Shown: positions 2,538 through 20,113 of the stretch, piece by piece | Layout of the letters: each line of letters opens with the position of its first letter | Position numbering within the stretch: position 1 is the stretch's first letter | Assembly (NCBI GenBank): GCA_016179225.1 | Contig: JACORV010000012.1 | Location: 1 to 48,969, forward strand | From: Gemmatimonadota bacterium | Lineage (GTDB): Bacteria; Gemmatimonadota; Gemmatimonadetes; Gemmatimonadales; JACORV01 | Direction of reading: 5' to 3' | DNA: 48,969 nt | The notes under the pieces: generated by a model | Seen by the model: only the letters and a program-made list of their open reading frames with translations | Databases searched by the model: none | What the model was told of the DNA's origin: nothing | Position numbers and translations under genes: made by a program

Positions 2538-3824
2538 ATGCGCGTCGTCGCCGTCGGTGTCAGTCATCCTTCCGCGCCGCTCGCCATCCGCGAGCGACTC
2601 GCCCTCACGGCCGAGGCGGGCGCGACGCTGCTCGCGCGCGCGCGCGAGGCCGGCGCGGAGGAAGTGGCCGTGCTGGCGACCTGCGGACGCACTGAGCTCT
2701 ACGCCGCCGGCCGCGACGTCCCTCCCGACGCCGACGCGCTCGCCACCCTCCTCGCCGAGGCGGGCGACGCGCCGCTCGCCGATCTCCAGCCGTACCTCGA
2801 GCGGCGGCACGGCCGCTACGCGATCGTGCATCTGTTGCGCGTGGCGAGCGGGGTGGATTCGCTGGTCGTCGGCGAATCGGAGATCCTCGGCCAGGTGGCG
2901 CGGGCCGGCGAGCGTGCGGAGCGCGCGGGCGCGAGCGGCCCGGTCCTGGCTCGCGTGTTCGGCGCCGCGGTGCGCGCGGGGCGGCGCGCCCGCGCCGAGA
3001 CTGCCATCGGGGCGAAGGCGACGAGCGTCCCGGCCGTCGCCGTTGAAGAGGCTCAGCGCGTCCTCGGAACCCTCGCGGGACGCGTCGTGCTGGTGCTCGG
3101 CGCGGGAGAGACCAGCCAGCTCGCGGTGCGGGCGCTGATGGCGCGGGGCGCGGCGCCCCCCCTCATCATGAACCGCACCCTCGCGCACGCCGAGGCACTG
3201 GCCGCCGCGTTCGCGGCGAGGGTGGCCCCGCTGGACCGGCTCACCGCGGCGCTCGAGTCGGCGGACGTCGTGGTAGCGTCCACCGGCGCCCCGCAAGCGC
3301 TGCTCGCGGCCGACGACGTCCGCCGCGCCATGCGGGGCCGGCGCGACCGGCCGCTCGCGATCGTGGACATGGCGGTCCCGCGTGACGTGGACCCCGCGGT
3401 GCGAGACCTGCCGGGCGTGCATTACTTCGATCTCGACGACCTGGCGCGCGCGGCGGAGGAGAACCTGAACGGTCGCCGCGCCGAAGTGCCGCGCGTCGAA
3501 GCCATCGTTGCCGAAGAAACGGAGCGGGTCCTCGACTGGATGCGGACCGCGTCGGTGACGCCGGCGATCGCGAGCCTGCGCAGCCGCGCCGAAGCGATCC
3601 GCGAGGCGGAGGTCGTGCGCGCGCTGCGCCGGCTGCCGCGGCTCTCCGAGCGCGAGCGCCGCGCGCTCGAGGCGTTCAGCAAGAGCCTCGTCAAGAAGCT
3701 TCTCCACGATCCGACGAGCGTGCTGAAGGCGGAGGCCGGCAATGGCCGCGCGGCCGAGCTGACTGCGGCGCTGCGGCGTCTCTTCGCGCTTGACGCGGGG
3801 GATCCGGACCGGCGGGAGCCGTGA
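2538..3824 (+). CDS. hemA: Glutamyl-tRNA reductase
   Basis: LATCGRTELY (catalytic Cys), SGVDSLVVGESEILGQV, LGAGE, NRT, DMAVPRDV, KLLHDPT. Confidence 0.97.
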   Translation: MRVVAVGVSHPSAPLAIRERLALTAEAGATLLARAREAGAEEVAVLATCGRTELYAAGRDVPPDADALATLLAEAGDAPLADLQPYLERRHGRYAIVHLLRVASGVDSLVVGESEILGQVARAGERAERAGASGPVLARVFGAAVRAGRRARAETAIGAKATSVPAVAVEEAQRVLGTLAGRVVLVLGAGETSQLAVRALMARGAAPPLIMNRTLAHAEALAAAFAARVAPLDRLTAALESADVVVASTGAPQALLAADDVRRAMRGRRDRPLAIVDMAVPRDVDPAVRDLPGVHYFDLDDLARAAEENLNGRRAEVPRVEAIVAEETERVLDWMRTASVTPAIASLRSRAEAIREAEVVRALRRLPRLSERERRALEAFSKSLVKKLLHDPTSVLKAEAGNGRAAELTAALRRLFALDAGDPDRREP

Positions 3825-4762
3825 AGGCGACGGCCAGGGCGGTGGTGCGCGTCGGTACGCGCGCCAGCGCGCTCGCCCGCCGGCAGGCGGAGTTGGTCGT
3901 CGCGGCCCTGTGCGCCGCCCACCCCGACCTCGCTTGCGAGATCGCGACCGTCACCACGCGCGGCGACCGCGACCTCGAGTCTCCCCTTCCCGCCATCGGT
4001 GGCAAAGGCGTCTTCACGGCCGAGCTCGAGGAGGCGCTCCGCCGCGGCACGGTCACCATCGCGGTCCACAGCCTGAAAGACCTTCCGACCGAAGAGCCGC
4101 CGGGCTTGGTCGTCGCCGCGGTGCTCGAACGAGCCGACCCCCGCGACGTGCTGGTCTCGCGCTCGCGAGGTACGCTGGCGGAGCTCCCGACTGCGCCGGC
4201 CGTCGGAACCAGCAGCCTGCGGCGCGCGGCGCAGGTGCTGGCGCTCAGGCCGGACGCGAGGCTGCTCCCGCTGCGCGGCAACGTGGAGACGCGGGTGCGC
4301 AAGGCCATGGACGGCCTAGGCCCGTACGACGCGATCGTGCTCGCCGCGGCGGGGCTCGAGCGGCTCGGCCTCGCGGACGTCGCCGCCGAGCGCTTCGCGC
4401 CCGATCGCTTCCTTCCCGCGCCTGGCCAGGGCGCGGTCGCGATCGAGTGCCGCCGCACCGAGCCGTTGCTCGATTTGCTCCGGGCCGTGAGCCACCCGCC
4501 GACCTGGTCCGCAGTCACCGCGGAGCGCGCGTTCCTCTCCGGTCTCGGCGCCGGTTGCACCGCGCCGGTCGCCGCGTTCGGCCGGGAGGAAAGCGGCCGC
4601 CTAATCCTCGACGGGCTGGTGGCTTCGCAGGACGGCAGACGCGTCGTGCGGGTGCGGGCCCAGGGTGACCCGTCCGAGCCGGCCGTCCTCGGCGCGCGCC
4701 TCGCGGCGGACGCGCGCGAGGCTGGGGCCGAAGCGCTGCTCGCGGCGGGAGGCGGCTCGTGA
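3821..4762 (+). CDS. hemC: Hydroxymethylbilane synthase
   Basis: GTRASALA, GGKGVFTAELE, AVHSLKD, GTSSLRR, LRGNVETR, GAGCTAP. Confidence 0.97.
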   Translation: MKATARAVVRVGTRASALARRQAELVVAALCAAHPDLACEIATVTTRGDRDLESPLPAIGGKGVFTAELEEALRRGTVTIAVHSLKDLPTEEPPGLVVAAVLERADPRDVLVSRSRGTLAELPTAPAVGTSSLRRAAQVLALRPDARLLPLRGNVETRVRKAMDGLGPYDAIVLAAAGLERLGLADVAAERFAPDRFLPAPGQGAVAIECRRTEPLLDLLRAVSHPPTWSAVTAERAFLSGLGAGCTAPVAAFGREESGRLILDGLVASQDGRRVVRVRAQGDPSEPAVLGARLAADAREAGAEALLAAGGGS

Positions 4763-5826
4763 CCGGCGCGCCGCGCGAACGGCGCCAGCTCGTCCGCTTC
4801 GCTTTCTACCGGCTCGATCCCGTTTTCCGGCGCCTGCCCGCCGCCGAGCAGCGGCAGCACAAGGAGGAGTTCGCCGCCACCATCTCCGCCTTCGCCGAGC
4901 GCGTGCTGTTGCGGTCGTACAGCCTGGTGGGCGTGCGCGGCGACGCCGACTTCATGCTCTGGCAGGTCGCCGAGGAGCTGGACACGCTGCAGGCCCTCCA
5001 GACGGCGCTCAACCGGACGCGACTCGGCGCCTACCTCGCCGTGCCGTACAGCTACCTGGCCATGACGCGCCGCTCCATCTACGAGATCCGGGACGCGGAG
5101 CCGGGACACACGGGGCTGGTGATCCGGCCGAGCCAGGCGCGCTACCTGTTCGTCTATCCCTTCGTGAAGACGCGCGAGTGGTACGCGCTGCCGATGGGCG
5201 AGCGCCAGGCGATGATGGAGGAGCACATCGCGGTCGGCCGGCGCTTCCCCAGCATTCGGCTCAACACGACGTACTCGTACGGACTCGACGACCAGGAGTT
5301 CGTCGTGGCGTTCGAGGGCGACGACCCCGCGGAGTTCCTGGACCTCGTGATGGCGCTGCGCGAGAGCCAGGCCTCGCGCTACACGCTCCGGGACACCCCG
5401 ACGTTCAGCTGCATCCAGATGCCCATCGCCGACATGCTGGACGCGTTGGGGGGCGAGGCGATGGGCGCCGATGCCGCGCCCGCGCCCCGGGCCGACGGCT
5501 TGGTCGCGGCCTGCGCGCTCCGGGACCTGCCGCCGGGGGCGAGCCGTCGCGTGGTCGCGCGGGGCGAGGTGGTGGCGGTCTTCAACGTCGGCGGCCGCGT
5601 CTTCGCGATCGGCAACCGATGCACCCACGCCCGCGCGTCGCTCGCCGACGGGACCGTGGACGCGGCGACCGCCGTAGTGACGTGCCCCTGGCATGCCGGT
5701 CGCTTCGAGCTCGCGACCGGCCGGGCGATCGACGGCCCTCCCAAGGCGGCGGTGCCGGTCTACCCCGTGCGGATCGAGGACGGCACGGTGCTGCTCGGTG
5801 TGCCAGAGATGACCGTTGCGGACTGA
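4759..5826 (+). CDS. chdC: Coproheme decarboxylase (ChdC/HemQ, chlorite dismutase superfamily) fused to a C-terminal Rieske [2Fe-2S] ferredoxin domain
   Basis: YPFVK..WY and EEH (catalytic Tyr, Lys, proximal His), YGLDDQEFVVAFE, and location in the hem operon beside hemH and hemY. C-terminal CTH...CPWH Rieske motif. Confidence 0.85.
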   Translation: MTGAPRERRQLVRFAFYRLDPVFRRLPAAEQRQHKEEFAATISAFAERVLLRSYSLVGVRGDADFMLWQVAEELDTLQALQTALNRTRLGAYLAVPYSYLAMTRRSIYEIRDAEPGHTGLVIRPSQARYLFVYPFVKTREWYALPMGERQAMMEEHIAVGRRFPSIRLNTTYSYGLDDQEFVVAFEGDDPAEFLDLVMALRESQASRYTLRDTPTFSCIQMPIADMLDALGGEAMGADAAPAPRADGLVAACALRDLPPGASRRVVARGEVVAVFNVGGRVFAIGNRCTHARASLADGTVDAATAVVTCPWHAGRFELATGRAIDGPPKAAVPVYPVRIEDGTVLLGVPEMTVAD

Positions 5827-6742
5827 CACCACGGCCGTGCTCCTCATGGCGTACGGCGGCCCCGACTCGCTCGACGACGTGGCCCCCTACCTCGCCGACG
5901 TGCGCGGCGGCCGCCCGACGCCGCAGCGCTTGGTCGAAGAAGTCCGCTCGCGCTACGCCGCGATCGGCGGCCGTTCGCCGCTGCTCGCCCGGACCCGCGA
6001 GCAGGCCGCCGCGCTCGCCACGAGGCTCGGCCCCGCTTGGCGCACCGCGGTCGGCATGCGGCACTGGAAGCCGTACATCGCTGAGGCGCTGGACGCACTC
6101 GCAGCGGAAGGCGTGCGGCGCGTGATCGCCTTGCCGATGGCGCCGCACTTTTCCGACCTGAGCGGCGGGGCGTATCGTCGCGCCTGCGAGACCGCGCCGG
6201 CGGTGCGGCGGGGAGACGTGCAGCTGGCGTTCGTGCCCGGATGGAGCGCGCACCCGGGATTCATCGACGCGGTGGCGGAGCGAGCGGGCGCCGCCCTGGA
6301 CGCGCTCGGGGACCGCCGCGCCACCACCCTGGTCGTCTTCTCTGCCCACAGCCTCCCGGAACGGATCATCGATTCCGGCGACCCGTACGCTGAGAACTTC
6401 GCCACCAGTGTCGCCCGCGTGGCCGAGCGGCTCTGCCTCGCCGGCTTCCGCCTCGCGTTTCAGAGCGCCGGTGCCACGCGCGACCGCTGGCTCGGTCCCG
6501 ACGTGGCCGTGGTCATGGGCGACGCGTCGGCGGCGGGCTACGAAGGGGTGCTCGTCGTTCCGATCGGGTTCGTGTGCGACAACGTCGAGATCCTCTACGA
6601 CGTGGACGTGGCCTATCGCGGGCACGCCGTGCGCCTGGGACTCGACTTTTCCCGATCGGAATCCTTGAACGCGAGCCCGCGGCTCGTCGCAACGCTCGCG
6701 GACCTGACGCACGTGGCCGCTCGCGAGGCCGGCTGGTCGTGA
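5816..6742 (+). CDS. hemH: Ferrochelatase (probably coproporphyrin ferrochelatase CpfC)
   Basis: LLMAYGGP, IGGRSPL, MRHWKPYI, FSAHSLP, FQS...WLGP, PIGFVCDNVEILYD. Confidence 0.93.
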   Translation: MRTDTTAVLLMAYGGPDSLDDVAPYLADVRGGRPTPQRLVEEVRSRYAAIGGRSPLLARTREQAAALATRLGPAWRTAVGMRHWKPYIAEALDALAAEGVRRVIALPMAPHFSDLSGGAYRRACETAPAVRRGDVQLAFVPGWSAHPGFIDAVAERAGAALDALGDRRATTLVVFSAHSLPERIIDSGDPYAENFATSVARVAERLCLAGFRLAFQSAGATRDRWLGPDVAVVMGDASAAGYEGVLVVPIGFVCDNVEILYDVDVAYRGHAVRLGLDFSRSESLNASPRLVATLADLTHVAAREAGWS

Positions 6743-7824
6743 GTGCGGTCCTCGTGGTGGGCGGCGGCATCACCGGTCTCGTCGCGGCGCACGCCGCGAC
6801 GCGTGACGGTCACGACGTGACGCTGCTCGAGGCGAGCTCGCGACTCGGCGGGCTGATCCTCACCGAGCGCGTGGACGGGTTCCTCGTCGAAGCAGGCCCC
6901 GACGCCTTTCTCGCCGGCCGGCCCGAGATCCCGGCGCTGGTGGGCGAGCTCGGGCTCGCCGGTGACCTCCTCGCGCAGCGGGTCCGCACGATTCTCCTGG
7001 GCGATGGTGGCGAGTTGGTTCCTCTGGCGCCGGGCGCGGCGGCGGCGGTGCTCGAGCTCGCTACGAGCGAGCGCGAGGCGGCCGCCGGGTTCACGACCCT
7101 GCGCGGCGGGCTGGGCTCGTTGATCGCCGCGCTCGCCGCGCGACTCGGCGATCGCGTCCGGCTTGGAGCGCGGGCTCGCGCGGTGGTGCGCGACGGGGCT
7201 CAACTCTTGGTGGACGTCGAAGGTAGTCCGGGCCTCGTCGCCGACGCAGTCGTCCTCGCCCTGCCCGGCCATGCCGCCGCGCCGCTGCTCCGGGAGATGG
7301 ACCCGCTTCTCGCCACGATGCTCGGCGCGCTCGAGTACCGCTCATCGAACACCGTCGCCCTCGCCTACGATGCCAGGGACGTGGGACACGCGCTGGACGC
7401 CTCCGGCATGGTGGTGCCGCGCGAGGCGGCGCGGGCGGTCGTGGCGTGCACCTTCGCCTCGTCGAAGTTCGAGGGCCGCGCGCCGCAGGGCGGGGTGCTG
7501 CTGCGCGCGTTCGTGGGGCGCTGCGGCGCCCGAGAAGTGGAGGAGGAAAGCGACGAACGGATCGTGGATGTGGCGCGCGCGGACCTCGAGCCGCTGTTGC
7601 GCATCACGCGCGCGCCGCGTTGGTCGCGCGTGTACCGCTGGCCCCGCGCGCTCCCCCGGCCCGACGCGCGGGACGGCGAGCCGCGCCACCTGATCCGCGA
7701 GCGCGCGCTCAGGGCCGGCGTCGTGCTGGCCGGATCGGCGGAGGGCGGAGCCGGGCTCTCCGACGGCGTGGCGAGCGGCCGGCGCGCCGCGACCGCCATT
7801 CGCGAGGTAGCGGTCGCGTCGTGA
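6739..7824 (+). CDS. hemY: HemY/CgoX-type (copro/proto)porphyrinogen oxidase, short form (~361 aa)
   Basis: GTG 6739 overlaps the hemH stop. Motifs VVGGGITGL, LEASSRLGG, EAGPDAF, FTTLRGG, SSKFEGRAP, RWPRALP. Confidence 0.85.
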   Translation: MSAVLVVGGGITGLVAAHAATRDGHDVTLLEASSRLGGLILTERVDGFLVEAGPDAFLAGRPEIPALVGELGLAGDLLAQRVRTILLGDGGELVPLAPGAAAAVLELATSEREAAAGFTTLRGGLGSLIAALAARLGDRVRLGARARAVVRDGAQLLVDVEGSPGLVADAVVLALPGHAAAPLLREMDPLLATMLGALEYRSSNTVALAYDARDVGHALDASGMVVPREAARAVVACTFASSKFEGRAPQGGVLLRAFVGRCGAREVEEESDERIVDVARADLEPLLRITRAPRWSRVYRWPRALPRPDARDGEPRHLIRERALRAGVVLAGSAEGGAGLSDGVASGRRAATAIREVAVAS

Positions 7825-8696
7825 CCAGGCGTATCCGCACCTACCGCGAGCTTTCGGGCGAGGACCGCTCCGGCATCGTGGCCCAGGTGGTCGCGCAGCA
7901 GGACCGGGTCCGCGAACGTCTCCGCGCGGTACGGCACACCGTCGCCGTCATGAGCGGCAAGGGGGGCGTGGGCAAGAGCTTCGTCACCGCGCTCCTCGCG
8001 GCGGCGCTGGCGGAGGCCGGCAAGCGTGTGGGCGTGCTGGATGCCGATCTTCAAGGTCCGACGGCGGCGAGAATGCTGGGCGTCGGGCGGGAGCCGCTCG
8101 CGGTGCGCGACGACGACGTCGTGCCCCCCGAAGGCGCGCGGGGCGTGCGCGTGATCTCCAGCGACCTCCTCCTAGCCGAGGGCGCGCCGCTCAAGTGGAA
8201 GGAGCCGGGCGAGGCGCGGTTCGTCTGGCGCGGCACACTCGAGGCGGGGATGCTGCGCGAGTTCCTGGCCGACGTGGCCTGGGGCGAGCTCGACCTCCTG
8301 CTGGTGGACCTCCCGCCGGGGACCGACCGCCTCACCACCCTGATGGAGCTTCTTCCCGGGCTCACCGGCGTGCTGGCCGTAACCATCCCGTCCGACGCCT
8401 CGCTGCGGGCCGTGGCCCGCTCGCTCCAGCTGGCGCGCGAGGGCCGCATCCGCATTCTCGGCATCGTGGAGAACATGGCCAACTACCGCTGCGCGCACTG
8501 CGGCGCTCAGGGCCCGCTCATGACCGGCGACGCCGCCGATAGGCTCGCCGCCGAGGCCGCGGCCCCGGTGCTCGCGCGCCTCCCGTTCGATCCGGCGGTG
8601 CAGGCGGCCGTGGACGGGGGCCGGATCGGCGAGCCGGCCGACCCGGCCTTCGCAGCGCTCGCCGCGGCCCTGCTCGCTCGGGTGGAGGGCGCATGA
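7821..8696 (+). CDS. mrp: Mrp/NBP35/ApbC Fe-S cluster carrier ATPase
   Basis: SGKGGVGKS, LDADLQGP, WGELDLLLVDLPPGT, GIVENM..CAHC. GTG start overlaps the hemY stop. Confidence 0.9.
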   Translation: MTRRIRTYRELSGEDRSGIVAQVVAQQDRVRERLRAVRHTVAVMSGKGGVGKSFVTALLAAALAEAGKRVGVLDADLQGPTAARMLGVGREPLAVRDDDVVPPEGARGVRVISSDLLLAEGAPLKWKEPGEARFVWRGTLEAGMLREFLADVAWGELDLLLVDLPPGTDRLTTLMELLPGLTGVLAVTIPSDASLRAVARSLQLAREGRIRILGIVENMANYRCAHCGAQGPLMTGDAADRLAAEAAAPVLARLPFDPAVQAAVDGGRIGEPADPAFAALAAALLARVEGA

Positions 8697-9166
8697 AGTT
8701 CCTCTGCGTCGACTGCGATCAGCGCATGGTCTTCGAGGAGCGGCAGCTCCCGGGCGATGGCACACTGGCGGTCGCGTTTCGGTGCCCGGCCTGCGGGCGC
8801 ACCGTTGCCCTGTTGACGAATCCCTGGGAGACGCAGCTCGTCTCGTCGCTGGGCGTGATCATCGGCGGCCGCACGGTGCCGGAGCAGCCGATGGAGCTGA
8901 CCCGCACCACCACCGAAGGAGGGCGCGAGGGCGCCTTCGCCGACGCCGAGCCCGGTGAGGAGCGGCGCGATTCCACGCCCGGCGGCGCGCCAGCCCGTGT
9001 CACCTGGGACGACCGGGCGACGCAGCGCCTCGCGAACGTGCCGTCGTTCGTGCGCGGGATGGTGAAGCGCATCTACGCCGACTACGCGCTCGAGCGCGGT
9101 ATCGCGGTCATCACGCCCGAGGTGATGGACGCCGCCCGCAGCGACCTCGGCCTCGAGGGGATGTAA
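8693..9166 (+). CDS. Zn-ribbon (CxxC...CxxC) protein with C-terminal PCP_red-like domain
   Basis: CVDC and CPAC pairs. C-terminus WDDRATQRLANVPSFVRGMVKRIYADYALERGIAVITPEVMDAA resembles the BchB/ChlB C-terminal (PCP_red) pattern. Confidence 0.75.
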   Translation: MKFLCVDCDQRMVFEERQLPGDGTLAVAFRCPACGRTVALLTNPWETQLVSSLGVIIGGRTVPEQPMELTRTTTEGGREGAFADAEPGEERRDSTPGGAPARVTWDDRATQRLANVPSFVRGMVKRIYADYALERGIAVITPEVMDAARSDLGLEGM

Positions 9167-9512: not shown

Positions 9513-10280
9513 GTGCGCCCGCTTTCCGGCCGCCGCATCGTGGTGACCCGCCCTGCCGATCGGGCCGCGCGCCTGATCGAGCGCCTGCGCGCCCGCGGCG
9601 CGGAGCCGATCCCGTTCCCCACCATCCGCTTGACGCCCGCCGATCCCGCGCCCCTCGACGCGGCGATCGCCGCACTCGACACGTTCGACTGGGTGATTTT
9701 CACCAGTCGGGAGGGCGTCGACGCGTTCTTCCGGCGGCTGGATGCGCGCGGCGGGATGCCCGCCGCGCTAGCAGGCTCCGGAGGACGGGCATCGTCGGCG
9801 GGCGTGGGGAGGCTCGGCATCGCGGCGATCGGCCCGGCGACCGCCCAGGCGCTCCGCGACCATCGCGTCGAGCCCGCCCTCGTCCCGCGCGAATACGTCG
9901 CCGAGGCCCTCCTCGAAGCGCTCGGCGACGTGCGTGGGCTGCGGATGCTCCTCCCGCGCGCCGACATCGCCCGCAAGGCGCTGGCCGACGGCCTGCGCGC
10001 GCGGGGCGCCGAGGTCGTCGAGGTCGCCGCCTACCGCACCGTGGCGAGCGGCGCGCCGCCCCCCGCGCTGGAGGGCGTGGACGCGATTACCTTCACCAGC
10101 TCCTCGACGGTGCGGCACTTCGTGGAGAGCGGCGCGGACTTTGGCCGCGCCAAGATCGTGTGCATCGGCCCGGTCACCGCGGCCACGGCGCGCGAGCTCG
10201 GCCTGCCCGTTCACGCCGTGGCCAGCGAGTACACTGAAGACGGCCTCATCGAGGCGCTGGAAGGAGTGTTCACCGCGTGA
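9513..10280 (+). CDS. hemD: Uroporphyrinogen-III synthase
   Basis: [38 protein letters not shown]. Confidence 0.95.
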
Positions 10281-11260
10281 GCAGGTTCCCCGCGACCCGT
10301 CTCCGCCGCTGGCGCCGCACCCCCGCCCTGCGCGCGATGACGCGCGAGGCGACGGTGGCCGCGAGCGACTTCGTCTATCCCCTCTTCGTCACCGCCGGCG
10401 CGACCGTCCGTCGGGAGGTGCCCAGCATGCCCGGCGTGCACCAGCTTTCCGCGGACGGCGAGCTGGAGCGCGAGATCGCGGAGGTCGCCGACCTCGGGAT
10501 CGGCGCCGTCATCCTCTTCGGCCTTCCGGCCACCAAGGACGGCCAGGCCACCCAGGCTTACGCCGCGGGCGCGCCGGTCCAGCGCGCCATCGGTCTCATC
10601 AAGAAGGCGGCGCCGGAGCTGGTGGTCATCACCGACGTCTGCCTCTGCGAGTACACCGACCACGGCCACTGCGGCATCATCAGGGAAGGTGTGGTCGACA
10701 ACGACTCCACCCTCGACCTCCTCGGCAAGGTGGCCGTGAGCCACGTCGCAGCCGGCGCGGACGTCGTGGCGCCCAGCGGGATGATGGACGGGATGGTGGG
10801 CGCGATCCGTGCCGCCCTCGACGCGGCGGGCCACGCCGACACCGCGATCCTGAGCTACGCGGTGAAATACGCCAGCGCCTTCTATGGCCCCTTTCGCGAC
10901 GCCGCCCAGAGTCCGCCCGCCTTCGGCGACCGGAAGAGCCACCAGATGGATCCCGCGAACGTGCGTGAAGCGCTGCGCGAGTGCGAGCTCGACGTCGGCG
11001 AAGGCGCGGACGCGCTGATGGTGAAGCCGGCCCTGCCCTACCTCGACGTCGTGCGCGCGGTGCGCGAGAGGTTCCCGCTCCCGCTCGCCGCGTACAACGT
11101 GAGCGGCGAGTACGCGATGGTGAAGGCGGCGGCCGCGAAAGGCTGGCTCGACGAGCGCGCGTGCGTGCTCGAGCTGCTCACCGGCATCCGGCGCGCCGGC
11201 GCGGACCTGATTCTGACGTACCACGCCAAAGACGCCGCGCGCTGGCTGCGGGAAGCGTGA
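10277..11260 (+). CDS. hemB: Porphobilinogen synthase (Zn-binding type)
   Basis: [52 protein letters not shown]. Confidence 0.98.
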
Positions 11261-11326: not shown

Positions 11327-14263
11327 ATGGCTGAGCTTCTGGATCAGGTCCGAGCCGTGCTCGCCGACCGTTACGCGGTCGAGCGAGAGCTGGGGCAGGG
11401 CGGCATGGCCACCGTCTACCTGGCCGCCGATCGCAAGCACCACCGCTCAGTCGCCATCAAGGTCCTGAATCCGGAGCTGGGCACGATCCTGGGCCCCGAG
11501 CGGTTCCTGCGCGAGATCGAGATCGCCGCCGGGCTCACCCATCCGCACATCCTGCCTCTGCTCGATTCCGGGGAGTCCGGGGGCTTGCTTTACTACGTGA
11601 TGCCCTTCGTCGAAGGGGAATCGCTGCGGGATCGGCTGAGTCGCGAGAAACAGCTCCCCGTGGCCGAGAGTGTGCGGATCGCGCGGGAGGTCGCGGCCGC
11701 GCTCGCGTACGCGCACAGCCGCGACGTCGTGCATCGCGACATCAAGCCGGAAAACGTGCTCCTCTCGGGCGGGGAGGCCGTGGTGGCGGATTTCGGGATC
11801 GCCCGTGCGGTGACCGCGGCCGGCGGTCAACGGCTGACCGATACCGGCGTCGTCATCGGGACGCCGGCATACATGAGCCCGGAGCAAGCGACGGCCGAAC
11901 GCCAGCTCGACGGACGCAGCGACACCTACAGCCTGGGCTGCGTGTTGTACGAGATGTTGGCCGGCCAGCCACCGTTCACCGGCCCCACGGTGGAGAGCGT
12001 CGTGCACCAGCACCTGGCCGCCGACGCGCCGGCGGTCACGGCCATACGCTCGACGGTGCCGGCCGCCGTCGCGGCGGCCATTGGGCGGGCGCTGGCCAAG
12101 GCGCCGGCGGACCGATTCGCAACCGCCGCCCAGTTCGCCGAGGCGCTCGCGTCGGCTGCTGAGGGGACCGTCCCGCCGTTGGTGGTGCGGCCACGCCGCG
12201 CCAGGTGGTTGAAGCTCGGGGCCGGCCTGGGGCTGGCGGCCGCCGCCGCCGTTGCGGTGCTGCTGGGGCGGAATCGGTCCCCCGTCATCGCGGCGGCGTC
12301 GGTGGTCGCGGTCGTGCCGTTCGCTCCCACAACGCCCGACACCGGCCTCACGCGCCTCGGTCGCGATCTCGTCGTCACGCTCAGTGCCAACCTCGACGGC
12401 GTCGGCGAGATCCGCACCGTAGATGCCCTGACGATCCTCGCGCACACGGGGGATCCGAACCAGAGCTTCACGCGAGATGACGCCGCTGCGCTGGCGCGGC
12501 GGCTCGGGGCGAGCAGTGTGGTTCAGGGCAGCCTGCTCCGCGCCGGCGCGGCGGTCCGCCTGGAGCTCGGCCTGTTTCAGACGGATCGCGATGCCGAGGT
12601 GGCGCATGCGTCCGTGGTGGCGTCGCCTGGCGACTTTAACGCCCTGACGGATTCGGTCACCTGGGCGCTGCTCCGGCAGATCTGGCGCGCACGTGAGCCG
12701 CCGACACCGAGCCTGAGCGCCGTGACGACCCGCTCGCTGACGTCGCTGCGGGCGTTCCTCGAGGGCGAGCGGGCCAGCGTGGATGGACGCTGGCCCGAGG
12801 CCGAAGCGGCCTTCGCCCGTGCCATCGAGGCGGATTCCGCCTTCTGGCTCGCCTACTGGCGATATGCTTACGCGCGCAACTGGAATCTCCTGGAACCGGA
12901 CACCGCGATCGTCAGCGCCTACCGACGGCATCGCGACGCGCTGCCCGAACGTGAGCGTCTGCTCGTGGAAGCGGAGCTGGCCGACAGCGCCAGCGCCCGC
13001 CTGGGGCTTCTCGAGGAAGTCACGCGTCGTTTCCCGGACTATTGGCCGGGGTGGATGGAGTACGCCGACTGGCTGGTGCACTTCGCGCCCCTGCTGGAGC
13101 CGGTGAGCGAGAGGGCCCGCGCGGCGCTGGAGCGAACCATCGCCCTGAACCCCCGCTTGGTGCCCGCATGGACGCACCTGGCCTGGATGGCGGTGATGGA
13201 GGGCGACAGCGTTGCGCTGTCACGGGCCGTCACAACCCTCCAGCGGCTCGGTGCGCCGACGACTGGTCACACGCTTGCTCAATACGAAAGTCCCCGCGTT
13301 TTCCGCGTGCTGGACCGACTGCTGCGCAACGGCGGCGCCGCCGACCCTTCCCTGGTGGATTCCGCCGTCGCCGCGATGACCGCGAACGACGCCCTATGGC
13401 TCTGGTTCGGGTTCCCCGCAGCCCAGATCAAAGTGAGTCGCCAGGTGCAGCGCCGCGGCGTCCCGGCGCCCGAGTCGGCGTTCCAACTGTGGTTGATCGC
13501 GATGTCGTGGGCGGCCCGGGGCGCGTGGGACTCTGCGGCGGTCGCGCTGGACGACTACGTCCGCGCCGACCCCGGGGGGCGGGCTGCGCTCCGCGCGTAC
13601 GGTCTCGCCGTGGCCGGCGTGTGGCTCGGCGCGCTGAACGAAGCCGCGGCGGTGCACTTCCGGAGCGCGGCCGTGCGAGACACCGCGCACGAGAGCCCCG
13701 CCGCGCACTCCGAGCGCGCCTGGCTGGACGGGTTCATGGCCGCCACCCGCGGCGATCCGGCACGGGTCGCCGCCGCGCGGGCAGCGCTCCGCCGATCCAC
13801 GGACTCGGCCGCGGCCCTGCTCGAGGGCTCGCTGAGCACATTCGAGACGACGATGTCCGGCGCGCCAGCCGCTGCGGGCCGGGCGCTCGCCGCCCTGGAG
13901 CGCGAACGGGCAGAGCGCACACTGGCGCTCACCGATCCCGACGGGCTGGGCGACAACCATCCCTTCGTGAGGGCGCTCGATCGCCTGGCCGCAAGCCGCT
14001 GGCTCCTGGCGGCGGGCGACACCGCCACGGCGCTCGCGCTGCTGGCGTGGCACGACGAGGTGCGTATCCCCATGGCCGCCTTTGTGAGCAAGGTGCTCTC
14101 GGGGCTCGTGCATCTCGAGCTGGCGCGCATCGAGGCCGCACGCGGTCGCGTCGCAGCGGCGAGGGTCCACTACGAACAGTTTCTTCGGCGCTACGACATG
14201 CCGGTTGCCGCGCACCGGCATCTGGTGACCGACGCGCGCCGCGCGCTCGGCGAGATGCGGTGA
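11327..14263 (+). CDS. Hanks-type Ser/Thr protein kinase with a hydrophobic segment, TolB-N-like and TPR-like C-terminal regions
   Basis: LGQGGMATVY, VAIK, HRDIKPEN, DFG, GTPAYMSPEQ, D.YSLGCVLYEML, followed by a hydrophobic segment and helical repeats. Confidence 0.93.
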   Translation: MAELLDQVRAVLADRYAVERELGQGGMATVYLAADRKHHRSVAIKVLNPELGTILGPERFLREIEIAAGLTHPHILPLLDSGESGGLLYYVMPFVEGESLRDRLSREKQLPVAESVRIAREVAAALAYAHSRDVVHRDIKPENVLLSGGEAVVADFGIARAVTAAGGQRLTDTGVVIGTPAYMSPEQATAERQLDGRSDTYSLGCVLYEMLAGQPPFTGPTVESVVHQHLAADAPAVTAIRSTVPAAVAAAIGRALAKAPADRFATAAQFAEALASAAEGTVPPLVVRPRRARWLKLGAGLGLAAAAAVAVLLGRNRSPVIAAASVVAVVPFAPTTPDTGLTRLGRDLVVTLSANLDGVGEIRTVDALTILAHTGDPNQSFTRDDAAALARRLGASSVVQGSLLRAGAAVRLELGLFQTDRDAEVAHASVVASPGDFNALTDSVTWALLRQIWRAREPPTPSLSAVTTRSLTSLRAFLEGERASVDGRWPEAEAAFARAIEADSAFWLAYWRYAYARNWNLLEPDTAIVSAYRRHRDALPERERLLVEAELADSASARLGLLEEVTRRFPDYWPGWMEYADWLVHFAPLLEPVSERARAALERTIALNPRLVPAWTHLAWMAVMEGDSVALSRAVTTLQRLGAPTTGHTLAQYESPRVFRVLDRLLRNGGAADPSLVDSAVAAMTANDALWLWFGFPAAQIKVSRQVQRRGVPAPESAFQLWLIAMSWAARGAWDSAAVALDDYVRADPGGRAALRAYGLAVAGVWLGALNEAAAVHFRSAAVRDTAHESPAAHSERAWLDGFMAATRGDPARVAAARAALRRSTDSAAALLEGSLSTFETTMSGAPAAAGRALAALERERAERTLALTDPDGLGDNHPFVRALDRLAASRWLLAAGDTATALALLAWHDEVRIPMAAFVSKVLSGLVHLELARIEAARGRVAAARVHYEQFLRRYDMPVAAHRHLVTDARRALGEMR

Positions 14264-14281
14264 ATCGGTGTTGACAGCTTG

Positions 14282-14329
14282 CCACGCCAAAGACGCCGCG
14301 CGCTGGCTGCGGGAAGCGTGACGCCGGCC
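14282..14329 (+). repeat. 48-bp direct repeat, copy 2 (supplies the hemE start codon)
   Basis: Identical to 11221-11268; contains the hemE GTG at 14318. Confidence 0.95.
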
Positions 14330-15355
14330 GAACCGCGCCTGCTCGCGGCCTGCCGCCGCCGGCCCGTAGACAGGATTCCCGTCTGGTTCATGCGCCAGGC
14401 AGGGCGGTACCTCGCCGAGTACCGCGCGGTGCGCGCCAAGCACTCGATCCTCGAGATCTGCCACACGCCCGAGCTCGCGGCCGAAGTCACGCTGCAACCC
14501 GTCGAGCACCTGGGCGTAGACGCCGCGATCCTCTTCGCCGACATTCTGCTCCCCGTCGAGCCCCTCGGCCTCGGTCTCTCGTTCTCGGAAGGCGCCGGCC
14601 CCCTGATCGAGCGGCCCATCCGCGCGCCCGAGGACGTGGCCGCGCTTCCCGACGTGGACCCGCCGCGCGATCTCGGCTTCGTGGTCGAGGCCGTCGCCGC
14701 CTGCAAGCACGCGCTCGCCCAGCGCGCGCCCGGCACACCGCTCATCGGGTTCGCGGGCGCTCCGTTCACGCTCGCCAGCTACGTCATCGAAGGCGGCAGC
14801 TCGCGCAACTTCACCCTGACGAAGCGGTTCATGTACCAGCACCCCGAGGCCTGGCACGAACTGCTCCGCCGGCTCGCCGACCTGGTGGGCGGACTCCTCG
14901 GCGCACAGGCGCGGGCCGGCGCCGACGTCGTGCAGCTGTTCGACTCGTGGGTCGGATGCCTGGCGCCGGAGGACTACCGGCGCTTCGTGCTCCCGCACAG
15001 CCGCCGCGCCATCGAGCTCGCGCAGGCGGCCGGCGTGCCGGTCATCCACTTCGGCACGGATACGGCCACGCTGCTCGAGCTCCTGGTCGAGGCCGGCGGC
15101 GAGGTGATGGGCGTGGACTGGCGCATCCCGATCGACCAAGCGTGGGCGCGCACCGGCGACCGCGCCGTGCAAGGCAACCTGGACCCCGCTGCGCTCTTCG
15201 CGCCCCGCCCCGAGCTCGAGACCCGCGTCCGCGACATCCTCCAGCGGGTGGGGGGGCGCCCGGGCTTCATCTTCAACCTCGGCCACGGCATCCTGCCGGG
15301 CACGCCCGTCGACAACGTCCGCGCGGTCGTTGACCTGGTGCACGCCTTCGCGTGA
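14318..15355 (+). CDS. hemE: Uroporphyrinogen decarboxylase
   Basis: [56 protein letters not shown]. Confidence 0.97.
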
Positions 15356-16641
15356 GCACCGAGCGCTCCGCGGCCCTGTTCAGAGAAGCGCTGGCGCTCC
15401 TGCCCGGCGGGGTGGACAGCCCCGTCCGCGCGTTCAAGAGCGTCGGCGGGACGCCACGCTTCATCGAGCGGGGCGAGGGCGCCTGGCTCGTGGACGCGGA
15501 CGGCAACCGCTACGTGGACTACGTCCTCGCGTGGGGGCCGCTCATCCTCGGCCACGCGCCGCCCGCTGTGGTAGAGGCGGTGGAGCGGGTCCTGCGGCGC
15601 GGCACGGCGTTCGGCGCGCCCACCGCGCTCGAGACTGAGCTCGCGAGCCGCATCGTCGCGACGTTTCCGTCCATTCAGATGGTGCGGTTCGTGAATTCGG
15701 GCACCGAAGCCGCCATGAGCGCCTTGCGTCTTGCCCGCGCGTTCACCGGTCGCGCGAAAGTGATCAAGTTCGAGGGATGCTACCACGGCCACGCCGATGC
15801 CTTCCTCGTCCAGGCCGGCTCGGGTGTCGCGACCCTCGGCTTTCCCGACTCCCCGGGCGTGCCTCCAGCCACGGCCGCCGACACCCTCGTCGCCCCGTTC
15901 AACGACCTCGTCGCCGCGCGACGGCTCTTCGAACAGCATCCGAACCAGATCGCCGCGATCATCCTAGAGCCCGTGGTGGGCAACATGGGCGTGGTGCCGC
16001 CGGCGGACGGCTTCCTGGCCGGCCTGCGCGACCTCACCACCACTGCGGGCGCGCTCCTCGTCTTCGACGAGGTGATGACCGGCTGGCGCGTTCACCCCGG
16101 GGGCGCGCAGGGCCTCTACGGCGTCGCGCCCGACCTCACCTGCCTCGGCAAGGTCATCGGGGGCGGGCTCCCGGTCGGCGCGTACGGCGGGCGACGCGAC
16201 ATCATGGAGATGGTCGCGCCCGCCGGACCCGTGTACCAGGCGGGCACGCTGTCCGGCAATCCGCTCGCGATGGCCGCCGGCATCGCCACCCTCGACGCCC
16301 TCGCCACGCCGGGGGTGTGGGAGCGCGCCGAGCAAGCCGCCTCAGCCGCCGAGACCACCCTGCGCGAAACCGCACAGCGCGACGGAGCCGCGCTCATGGT
16401 GCAACGTGTCGGCACCATGTTCACCCCATTCTTCACGGATCGTCCGGTGAGTGACTTCGCCGCCGCGAAAACCGCCGACCGCGAGCGCTATGCCGTGTTC
16501 TTCCACCGGATGCTTGAGGCCGGCGTCTATCTGCCGCCCTCGCCGTTCGAGGCCGCCTTCGCGTCGACCGTTCACGGCGAGACCGAAATCGCGGCCTTCG
16601 CCGAAGCCGCTCGGCGCGCCCTGTCAGGGCTAGGGCACTGA
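15352..16641 (+). CDS. hemL: Glutamate-1-semialdehyde 2,1-aminomutase
   Basis: [54 protein letters not shown]. Confidence 0.97.
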
Positions 16642-18787: not shown

Positions 18788-20113
18788 ATGGCGGAGATGG
18801 CGACGAGCGTACTTCTCGCCGCGGAGCGGGAAGCGCCCGCGGGGGAGTGTCTCCCGCACGTTGTCGCGTGGAACCTCACGCGGCGCTGCAATCTCCGCTG
18901 CTCCCATTGCTACATCTCCGCCGGCCCGTCCGAGTCCGCGGCCGGCGAGCTCGACACGGCGGCGTGCCGCCGCGTCATCGAGCAGCTGCTGGCGGTGAAC
19001 CCAGCCCCGATGCTGATCCTGTCGGGCGGCGAGCCGCTGCTCAGGGATGACCTCCCCGCGATTGCGTCGTACGCCGCCCGGCGCGGCGCCACCGTCGTGG
19101 TGGGCACCAACGGGACGCTCCTCACCGAGGAGCGCATCGTCGGGCTCATGGAGGCGGGCGTCACCGGGGTGGCGGTGAGTGTGGACTCGCTGCGGCCCCG
19201 CTATCACGACAGTTTCCGCCGCAAGACCGACGCGCTGGCCGACACGATGGGCGCGATCGAGCGGCTCCGGACCCGCCGGCTCGACTTCATCGTGCAGACG
19301 ACCGCCACCCGCGGGAACAAGAGCGAGGTGCCGGCGCTGATCGAGTGGGCCGCCGCACAGGGCGCCGTGGCGTTCAACCTCTACTTCCTGGTGCCGACGG
19401 GGCGCGGCGGCCAGCTCACGGATCTGACGGCGTCCGAGTACGAGGCGCTCCTGGGCGTGCTCGCCGATTACGAGCGCCGGTACCGCGGTGCCATGATGGT
19501 GCGCGCCAAGTGCGCGCCGCACTTCATCCGGCGCGTGTACGAGGAGTCCCCGGGCTCGCCCGTCCTCAACTACCAGACCCGCTGCCCCTGCGGGATCCAG
19601 TACTGCCGGATCACGCCCGAGGGCGCGATCACCCCCTGCCCCTACCTGCCCACGATCGCAGGAGACCTGCGCACCCAGACCTTCGGCGAGATCTGGAATG
19701 GCTCGCCGGTCTTCGCCGACCTCAGGCGGCGGGAGCTGGGCGGCAAGTGCGGGCGCTGCGAGTACCGCCTCATCTGCGGGGGATGCCGGGCGCGCGCCTT
19801 CGCCTCAACCGGCGATTACCTCGCGGCCGACCCGTCGTGCGTCTACGAGCCCCCGGGCGACCGGCCGCTGATCGAGCGGCCCGCGGTGGCGTACGGCACG
19901 CCTGTGGCGCCGACGCTGGCCTGGTCGCCCGAAGCGGAAGAGCGCATGCGCCGCATCCCGTCCTTCGTGCGCGGCGTGGTGATGAGGCGCGTGGAGGACT
20001 TCGCGCGCGCCCGCGGTCTCGGCACCGTCACGCCGGAGCTGCTGAGCGAGATCCGCGGCGCCATGCCAATCGACTTCTCCCGGCGCAAACCCTTCTTCGT
20101 GCGCGATGACTGA
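18788..20113 (+). CDS. Radical SAM/SPASM protein (AhbD/NirJ-like) with C-terminal PCP_red-like domain
   Basis: WNLTRRCNLRCSHC, SGGEPL; SPASM Cys pattern CPCG..C...PC...KCGRCEY..CGGCRARA...DPSC; tail WSPEAEERMRRIPSFVR. Confidence 0.88.
   Translation: MAEMATSVLLAAEREAPAGECLPHVVAWNLTRRCNLRCSHCYISAGPSESAAGELDTAACRRVIEQLLAVNPAPMLILSGGEPLLRDDLPAIASYAARRGATVVVGTNGTLLTEERIVGLMEAGVTGVAVSVDSLRPRYHDSFRRKTDALADTMGAIERLRTRRLDFIVQTTATRGNKSEVPALIEWAAAQGAVAFNLYFLVPTGRGGQLTDLTASEYEALLGVLADYERRYRGAMMVRAKCAPHFIRRVYEESPGSPVLNYQTRCPCGIQYCRITPEGAITPCPYLPTIAGDLRTQTFGEIWNGSPVFADLRRRELGGKCGRCEYRLICGGCRARAFASTGDYLAADPSCVYEPPGDRPLIERPAVAYGTPVAPTLAWSPEAEERMRRIPSFVRGVVMRRVEDFARARGLGTVTPELLSEIRGAMPIDFSRRKPFFVRDD

Follow-up and report, generated by a model that had tools for sequence, protein, structure and literature searches.

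A coproheme decarboxylase fused to a Rieske ferredoxin in Gemmatimonadota and other bacterial phyla

Why would the enzyme that ends the coproporphyrin-dependent (CPD) heme pathway, coproheme decarboxylase (ChdC/HemQ), carry a Rieske ferredoxin at its C-terminus? The question is raised by a gene at positions 4759..5826 of contig JACORV010000012.1 from a soil bacterium of the phylum Gemmatimonadota, order Gemmatimonadales (NCBI GenBank assembly GCA_016179225.1), of which the stretch from position 1 to 48,969 was analysed here and is referred to as the window. The initial annotation of the window had described this gene as a ChdC-Rieske fusion and had suggested that the tethered [2Fe-2S] centre could accept or relay electrons or could reduce the heme product. 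The ChdC-Rieske protein is a real, conserved and apparently uncharacterised variant of a known enzyme, and we discuss below in which direction electrons may flow through it.

No description of a ChdC/HemQ-Rieske or chlorite dismutase-Rieske fusion was found by full-text searches (subscription literature being outside reach) or in two recent reviews, in agreement with the annotation's remark that none was known to be characterised. The only ChdC fusion named in the available text of two recent reviews is Cutibacterium acnes CpfC-ChdC (HemH-HemQ), likewise a heme-pathway fusion, but one in which the partner is the preceding pathway enzyme, suggesting substrate channelling, and not a redox carrier (PMC13564367, PMC10427985). 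Where the two terms occur together in PMC10060970 and PMC7242693, they refer to other proteins.

A naturally occurring ChdC with a covalently tethered one-electron carrier offers a direct experimental handle on the oxidant that ChdC uses in the cell, and, if it is true that O2 and electrons drive the reaction, heme completion would be independent of a toxic and scarce metabolite. The fusion is common in the abundant soil Gemmatimonadales and is also found in Chloroflexota, there often joined to a siroheme decarboxylase, so that it bears on the recombination of the three heme pathways in aerobic diderm bacteria.

Architecture and active site of the fusion protein

The features of the gene are the following (residue numbers are those of the encoded protein):

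4759..5826, forward strand: whole chdC-Rieske fusion gene, a single open reading frame (ORF) of 355 amino acids with a GTG start and a TGA stop (5824-5826)
4759..5454, forward strand: ChdC/HemQ domain (Pfam PF06778), residues 1-232, ending in a conserved LDxLGG
5107..5109, forward strand: His117, in the inter-domain loop, aligned with the distal base His118 of Corynebacterium diphtheriae ChdC
5155..5169, forward strand: YPFVK motif, residues 133-137, Tyr133 corresponding to the catalytic Tyr135 of C. diphtheriae ChdC
5224..5226, forward strand: His156, proximal heme ligand, in EEH (residues 154-156), corresponding to His158 of C. diphtheriae ChdC
5239-5241, forward strand: Arg161, five residues past His156
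5455..5496, forward strand: Ala/Pro-rich linker, residues 233-246, EAMGADAAPAPRA
5497..5796, forward strand: Rieske [2Fe-2S] ferredoxin domain of BphF/HcaC type, residues 247-346
5620..5628, forward strand: first cluster motif, Cys288-Thr-His290 (TGC-ACC-CAC; TGC at 5620, CAC at 5626)
5683..5694, forward strand: second cluster motif, Cys309-Pro-Trp-His312 (TGC-CCC-TGG-CAT; TGC at 5683, CAT at 5692), followed by xGxF as in BphF

The Chlor_dismutase domain (PF06778) is recognised over residues 33-220 (E 3.6e-61, 206.6 bits against a cut-off of 25), and the model of the ChdC domain matches ChdC and chlorite dismutase (Cld) structures in Foldseek (E about 1e-18), the closest solved relatives being ChdC structures from Streptomyces and Corynebacterium. 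With these actinobacterial enzymes (Streptomyces coelicolor 9MIQ/9MHQ; C. diphtheriae 6XUB/6XUC) the first half of the protein has in common the fold of two ferredoxin-like domains (target-normalised template modelling score 0.75-0.84), the catalytic Tyr of YPFV, the proximal His, an Arg five residues on, the lack of the chlorite dismutase Arg and a place in a heme operon; it differs in that the identity is only about 30%, the distal His is unconserved in the fused family and no solved ChdC bears a Rieske domain. Residues were assigned by phmmer alignment to C. diphtheriae ChdC (7Q4F/6XUB; chain index equal to the published number plus 2), a register confirmed by W183Y at index 185 of 7Q4F; the roles of Y135 and H118 in that enzyme are described in PMC10427985. 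Tyr133 and His156 are invariant in 148/148 fused sequences; His117 is not conserved across the fused family. Leu168 occupies the position of the catalytic Arg173 of Nitrospira chlorite dismutase (NdCld) in a transitive alignment through an unfused relative, and Leu is found there in 143 of the 148 fused sequences. A chlorite dismutase identity was rejected on account of this missing distal Arg. Judged by its domain and fold matches, these residues and its place among heme genes, the gene probably encodes a genuine coproheme decarboxylase. The best NCBIfam model, HemQ_actino (NF042928), scores 138.9 bits, under its cut-off of 235, and PRK12276 does not reach its own (84.4 against 253); by these scores the ChdC half is a divergent clade outside both curated HemQ subfamilies.

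The second half is recognised as Rieske (PF00355) over residues 249-336 (E 1.1e-17, 64.1 bits against a cut-off of 20.3), Rieske_2 matching the same domain about equally well. It was aligned end to end with BphF (PDB 1FQT, E 8e-20) and aligns over its full length also with carbazole, naphthalene and toluene dioxygenase ferredoxins, CxxHxGxF being common to all. Compared with BphF-type ferredoxins (1FQT, 2E4P, 2QPZ, 1VCK), the identity is about 40% over the full length and CxH...CxxHxGxF is shared, but those are free proteins of about 105 residues, mobile carriers between a flavoprotein reductase and an oxygenase, whereas here the domain is tethered to a heme enzyme. The best NCBIfam model, an HcaC-type dioxygenase ferredoxin, reaches 92.2 bits (cut-off 113) and a second HcaC model 80.3 (cut-off 150), so both halves of the protein are recognisable and neither falls in a curated equivalog.

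All four cluster ligands (Cys288, His290, Cys309 and His312) are invariant in 148/148 fused sequences, the spacing from His290 to Cys309 is 18 residues in 145 of them, and the linker, variable in sequence, has a length of 15 residues in 133. The window protein reads CTHARA and CPWHAGRF, the latter corresponding to CSLHMGKF in BphF. Low-potential Rieske centres are recognised by the lack of a disulfide-forming Cys pair and by G/F replacing S/Y after the second motif. Read directly, the window domain bears this signature, with no extra (disulfide) cysteines. The protein ends nine residues past the Rieske fold, and the alpha subunit of a Rieske non-heme iron oxygenase (CAO/PAO type) was rejected as an identity, since Pfam recognised no mononuclear-iron domain after the Rieske one. 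The AlphaFold2 model, computed from an alignment of 58 sequences (mean predicted local distance difference test score, pLDDT, 87.2; predicted template modelling score, pTM, 0.71), is confident in both domains and less so in the linker; among solved structures none spans both halves, since the Foldseek matches in the PDB cover only about 225 columns of the ChdC domain. The initial annotation had read one ORF that joins a ChdC domain (YPFVK, EEH, no distal Arg) through an Ala/Pro linker to a complete Rieske domain (CTH at 5620, then CPWH), and each of these elements is borne out: the motifs lie at residues 133-137 and 154-156, Leu168 stands at the Arg173-aligned position, the cluster codons begin exactly where given, and Pfam recognises both domains at scores far beyond chance.

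Distribution of the fusion and comparison with unfused ChdC

In a collection of 5.8 billion proteins, the best 120 matches to the window protein all join Chlor_dismutase and Rieske in frame (345-432 residues, 63-100% identity); the top match is the window's own protein, and those that carry a name are Gemmatimonadales or Gemmatimonadetes proteins from metagenome-assembled genomes (MAGs). A match spanning both domains is present in 33 of 301 sampled Gemmatimonadota genomes, the window genome and the unpublished genome G182 included (the denominator includes the unpublished G157, G097 and G057). The ORF was extracted in 28 of these 33 and is fused in 28/28; G007, G073, G054 and G181 were counted by match extent only, and the window genome completes the 33. 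Apparent split genes in G127, G090, G039, G060 and G153 were dismissed, as the supposed internal stop is the terminal stop codon and all five are fused. A scan of species-representative genomes added fused genes from Ktedonobacterales, Dehalococcoidia and other Chloroflexota, from Phycisphaerales (Planctomycetota) and from Hydrogenedentota, and in five genes of Chloroflexota type ChdC and Rieske are joined to a siroheme decarboxylase as well (NirDL-HTH plus AsnC_trans_reg2, twice; AhbA/B-like), which makes them triple fusions. Altogether the fusion was observed in 55 distinct genome loci from four phyla. The ESM Atlas holds three clusters with this architecture (77, 61 and 78 members), and stand-alone Rieske proteins at 55-60% identity form only 5 clusters, which may include fragments of fused genes.

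A tree of 111 ChdC domains (quick IQ-TREE) requires three changes of the fused label, against about 37 after label shuffling, and the Gemmatimonadota fused proteins form one group (43 rows; Shimodaira-Hasegawa-like approximate likelihood ratio test support 97); the backbone of this tree is weak, and one row labelled unfused (L063) ends at a contig end. Of the three other sampled genomes of the window's family none has the fusion: in G128 the search met just a ChdC-like gene of 35% identity, and in G069 and G155 nothing matched. The fused genes closest to that of the window belong to another family of the same order. The distribution is therefore patchy, for which gene transfer, loss or binning may be responsible.

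An artefact confined to this genome, in which loss of a stop codon, a frameshift or chimeric assembly has joined two separate genes, might be suspected, since the window genome is a MAG (1.8 Mb, 72% complete, 154 contigs, with one Chlor_dismutase gene). Its probability is negligible, given the uniform in-frame architecture of the best 120 matches, the 55 loci in four phyla and the scarcity of stand-alone Rieske relatives; the recurrence of the in-frame fusion across many genomes excludes the lost-stop-codon reading. The architecture search that the initial annotation had recommended thus finds the opposite of the separate genes that it had named as refutation, with 55 fused loci and no Rieske gene within about 6 kb of any of 56 unfused loci. 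The fusion is a stable, selected arrangement, conserved across phyla.

The nearest unfused ChdCs are found in Nitrospirota, Acidobacteriota, Chloroflexota, Methylomirabilota and two other Gemmatimonadota families. They have about 235-245 residues, the same catalytic residues and 50-60% identity over the ChdC domain (53-60% to the fused ChdC domain for those of the four named phyla). Heme genes adjoin the fusion in 46/55 distinct loci and the unfused gene in 1/56, counted with the window proteins as tblastn queries at E <= 1e-8. The two groups also differ in the active site. An HxH motif in the loop, the second His of which falls on the distal His of Streptomyces and Corynebacterium ChdC in the alignment, is present in 48/56 unfused and 0/55 fused proteins, and a loop His of any kind in 51/56 unfused and 19/55 fused proteins (43/148 in the larger set), the loop alignment being less certain than that of the core. 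In the actinobacterial enzyme the distal base promotes H2O2 activation (PMC10427985). Position 161 is Arg in all fused proteins (55/55 and 148/148) and His in 55/56 unfused ones; its equivalent in Listeria HemQ, Arg179, lies at the substrate access channel (PMC5157759). As far as these alignments tell, the distal site is changed together with the fusion.

Possible role of the Rieske domain

Rieske centres of the BphF type are electron donors with a potential near -150 mV. For coproheme-LmHemQ, an E°' of -205 mV was reported for the Fe(III)/Fe(II) couple (PMC5157759). Transfer between the two would therefore be roughly isopotential, and the cluster could reduce the coproheme iron. We tentatively propose, with somewhat less than even confidence, that electrons pass from the low-potential Rieske domain to the coproheme iron and that O2 and reductant replace free H2O2. 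The Rieske domain would take single electrons from a putative reductase and hand them to the coproheme iron; Fe(III) would become Fe(II) and bind O2, a second electron would yield a ferric-hydroperoxo/Compound I species, and this species would oxidise Tyr133, upon which propionates 2 and 4 would be decarboxylated. O2 and two electrons would in this way do the work of each free H2O2, much as they do in heme oxygenase or P450, with no need for diffusible peroxide.

Heme oxygenase and P450 have their heme iron reduced by an Fe-S or flavin partner, and O2 and two electrons give the same ferric-hydroperoxo species as H2O2 does directly; heme oxygenase further resembles ChdC in that its heme serves as substrate as well as cofactor. 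The likeness to these ferredoxin- or reductase-assisted enzymes is a functional analogy only, with no kinship in sequence or fold, and the route suggested for ChdC is drawn by that analogy. Electron donation would explain the donor-type domain, the relaxed peroxide-activating distal motif and the use of the fusion in a pathway free of CgoX. A more far-reaching version seems rather doubtful to us, namely that the protein is a self-contained decarboxylase running on O2 and reductant without free H2O2, with two electrons supplied by the Rieske centre for each decarboxylation, that the lost HxH marks the switch away from peroxide and that in Chloroflexota, by fusion to siroheme decarboxylase, it makes up an aerobic siroheme route without AhbC/AhbD.

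Several observations weigh against electron donation. Clustering of 1516 ORFs from 36 fused loci and the window revealed no reductase gene conserved beside the fusion, only heme genes being recurrent, and a BphG-type Reductase_C in the window genome is matched only weakly (26.5 bits, with an internal stop) and was found in one of four other fused genomes. In Gemmatimonadota, cgoX, whose product releases H2O2, is often near the fusion, so that a peroxide supply may exist. In 2017, Streit et al. reportedly saw nothing but oxidation of ferrous HemQ by O2, with H2O2 driving the subsequent reaction. About a third of the fused proteins retain a loop His, that of the window (His117) included, and the AlphaFold2 model, with its pTM of 0.71, does not fix the distance from cluster to heme.

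The lack of a conserved partner reductase nearby would suit a sensor or regulatory module, whose cluster reports Fe-S supply, O2 or nitric oxide and gates heme completion, or stabilises the protein, in the manner discussed for the [2Fe-2S] clusters of ferrochelatases, which have no catalytic role; heme-pathway enzymes often contain such clusters to which no catalytic role is assigned (PMC13564367, PMC10427985), and an Mrp/ApbC-type Fe-S carrier gene lies in the heme cluster of the window. We consider this unlikely, for the domain is a canonical electron-shuttle Rieske ferredoxin over its whole length, the linked change of the distal loop points to catalysis and not to regulation, and the Mrp gene accompanies the fusion in 2 loci only. 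The low-potential donor character of the domain also fits a protective or product-handling role, in which off-pathway Compound I/II or protein radicals are reduced so that heme is not bleached, or ferric heme b is converted to the ferrous form for release to acceptor proteins, and excess H2O2 does lead to heme bleaching and destruction in HemQ (PMC5157759); this appears somewhat less probable still, as it leaves unexplained both the loss of the distal HxH and the presence of the fusion in siroheme-route genomes without an obvious peroxide source.

The idea put forward in the initial annotation, that the cluster is a built-in electron acceptor or relay which drains electrons from coproheme oxidation and so permits decarboxylation without peroxide or oxygen, is improbable. 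The fusion does hold a redox centre near the active site, and ChdC may take flavin mononucleotide (FMN) as well as H2O2 as electron acceptor according to a review (PMC13564367). Generation of the Tyr radical, nevertheless, demands a far stronger oxidant, which a BphF/HcaC donor-type centre of low potential cannot replace, and for oxygen-free conditions the window cluster already has an AhbD-like radical SAM enzyme. What survives of the proposal is peroxide independence, with the direction inverted, electrons passing from Rieske to coproheme iron for O2 activation. Just as improbable, in our view, is a Rieske domain that merely co-localises with ChdC and serves another enzyme of the pathway, be it CgoX, CpfC (by iron reduction) or an aerobic replacement of AhbC. 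ChdC in this clade is indeed fused to varied heme-related modules (siroheme decarboxylase, PCP_red) and the Chloroflexota with triple fusions lack a clear AhbC, but the Rieske domain always stands directly C-terminal of ChdC behind a short linker of constant length, however the remainder of the pathway is made up, and the fusion is found with both the CPD and the siroheme routes.

Gene neighbourhoods in Chloroflexota and in the window

The triple fusions of Chloroflexota type are located as follows:

L058:5986-8166, forward strand: 726 amino acids
L073:5974-8526, forward strand: 850 amino acids (genome G304)
L119:836-3040, reverse strand: 734 amino acids (genome G582)
L121:405-2960, reverse strand: 851 amino acids (genome G358)
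L124:807-3152, reverse strand: 781 amino acids (genome G423)

The same architecture is seen in a database representative of 736 residues (P0132), and the protein P0136 joins PCP_red to ChdC. Ferrochelatase was found in none of five fused Chloroflexota genomes of uncertain completeness (G301, G304, G358, G423 and G582), and URO-D in two of them, by weak matches. A strong AhbC-like match is confined to G301, which carries a double fusion; in the four triple-fusion genomes (G304, G358, G423 and G582) the best match has 54 bits or less. With no ferrochelatase found and, in four of the five, a siroheme decarboxylase fused, ChdC-Rieske is therefore apparently fed from the siroheme route, and these five genomes appear, from their gene content, to use a siroheme route without the H2O2-producing CgoX. 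The triple fusion suggests an aerobic hybrid in which the siroheme route is finished by ChdC.

In the Chloroflexota sample a ChdC-type match was found in 134 of 301 genomes (including the unpublished G342, G530, G575, G476 and G448) and a fused gene in at least 5 of 301. This fused count is a lower bound, because the E limit of 1e-25 hid separate Rieske matches and only 20 long open frames were examined. An aldo/keto reductase family gene is found directly upstream, on the same strand, in 7/7 Chloroflexota-type fused loci:

L054:4976-5980: aldo/keto reductase
L055:49-738: aldo/keto reductase
L058:4902-5900: aldo/keto reductase
L060:4970-5971: aldo/keto reductase
L061:4955-5959: aldo/keto reductase
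L065:4820-5986: aldo/keto reductase
L073:4820-5809: aldo/keto reductase

As a general partner of the fusion it was rejected, the window genome having only a 34%-identical paralogue and the protein being without cluster-holding cysteines. Many unfused Chloroflexota chdC genes (among L120, L123, L125, L126, L128-L134 and L136) have about 100-130 more in-frame open codons upstream, with no Pfam domain in the three extensions tested; this open frame may represent an N-terminal extension, or no more than the open reading that high-GC DNA typically shows.

In the window, the fusion gene is part of a cluster of heme genes:

2538-3824, forward strand: hemA (glutamyl-tRNA reductase), upstream operon gene
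3821-4762, forward strand: hemC (porphobilinogen deaminase), upstream operon gene
5816-6742, forward strand: cpfC/hemH ferrochelatase, downstream of chdC-Rieske
about 6736 to 7824, forward strand: cgoX/hemY-type oxidase, downstream of cpfC
about 7821-8696, forward strand: Mrp/ApbC-type (NUBPL-type) Fe-S cluster carrier ATPase, directly after cgoX
8693-9166, forward strand: small PCP_red-domain protein of 157 amino acids
9513-10280, forward strand: hemD
10277-11260, forward strand: hemB
11327-14263, forward strand: Ser/Thr protein kinase of 978 amino acids, between hemB and hemE
14279-15355, forward strand: hemE
15352-16641, forward strand: hemL
18788-20113, forward strand: AhbD/NirJ2-like radical SAM-SPASM protein with a C-terminal PCP_red domain (TIGR04545, 299.6 bits, under the cut-off of 500)

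The GTG start of chdC-Rieske overlaps the hemC stop (GTGA, 4759-4762), and its 3' end contains the start of cpfC (TTG at 5816), the two genes overlapping by 11 nt. The CPD-pathway genes cpfC, cgoX and hemE are all near the fusion; no siroheme decarboxylase domain was found in the window's genome, which therefore uses the coproporphyrin-dependent route. Heme synthesis is known to be completed by AhbD as an alternative (PMC7242693), and the AhbD-like protein of the cluster is, from its domain content, a plausible candidate for an oxygen-independent coproheme decarboxylase, which would provide an alternative last step without oxygen.

The Mrp/ApbC carrier of the heme operon could load the Rieske cluster. 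In one further locus, L026, the fusion gene is likewise followed by the pair formed by Mrp and the small PCP_red protein, and the two were rejected as fixed partners because they occur with the fusion in 2 loci only. PCP_red, known as the C-terminal domain of the protochlorophyllide reductase subunit BchB, was seen three times around coproheme chemistry, in the 157-residue protein of the cluster, at the C-terminus of the AhbD-like protein and at the N-terminus of the unfused-type ChdC P0136 (330 residues), and may be a tetrapyrrole-binding or hand-off module.

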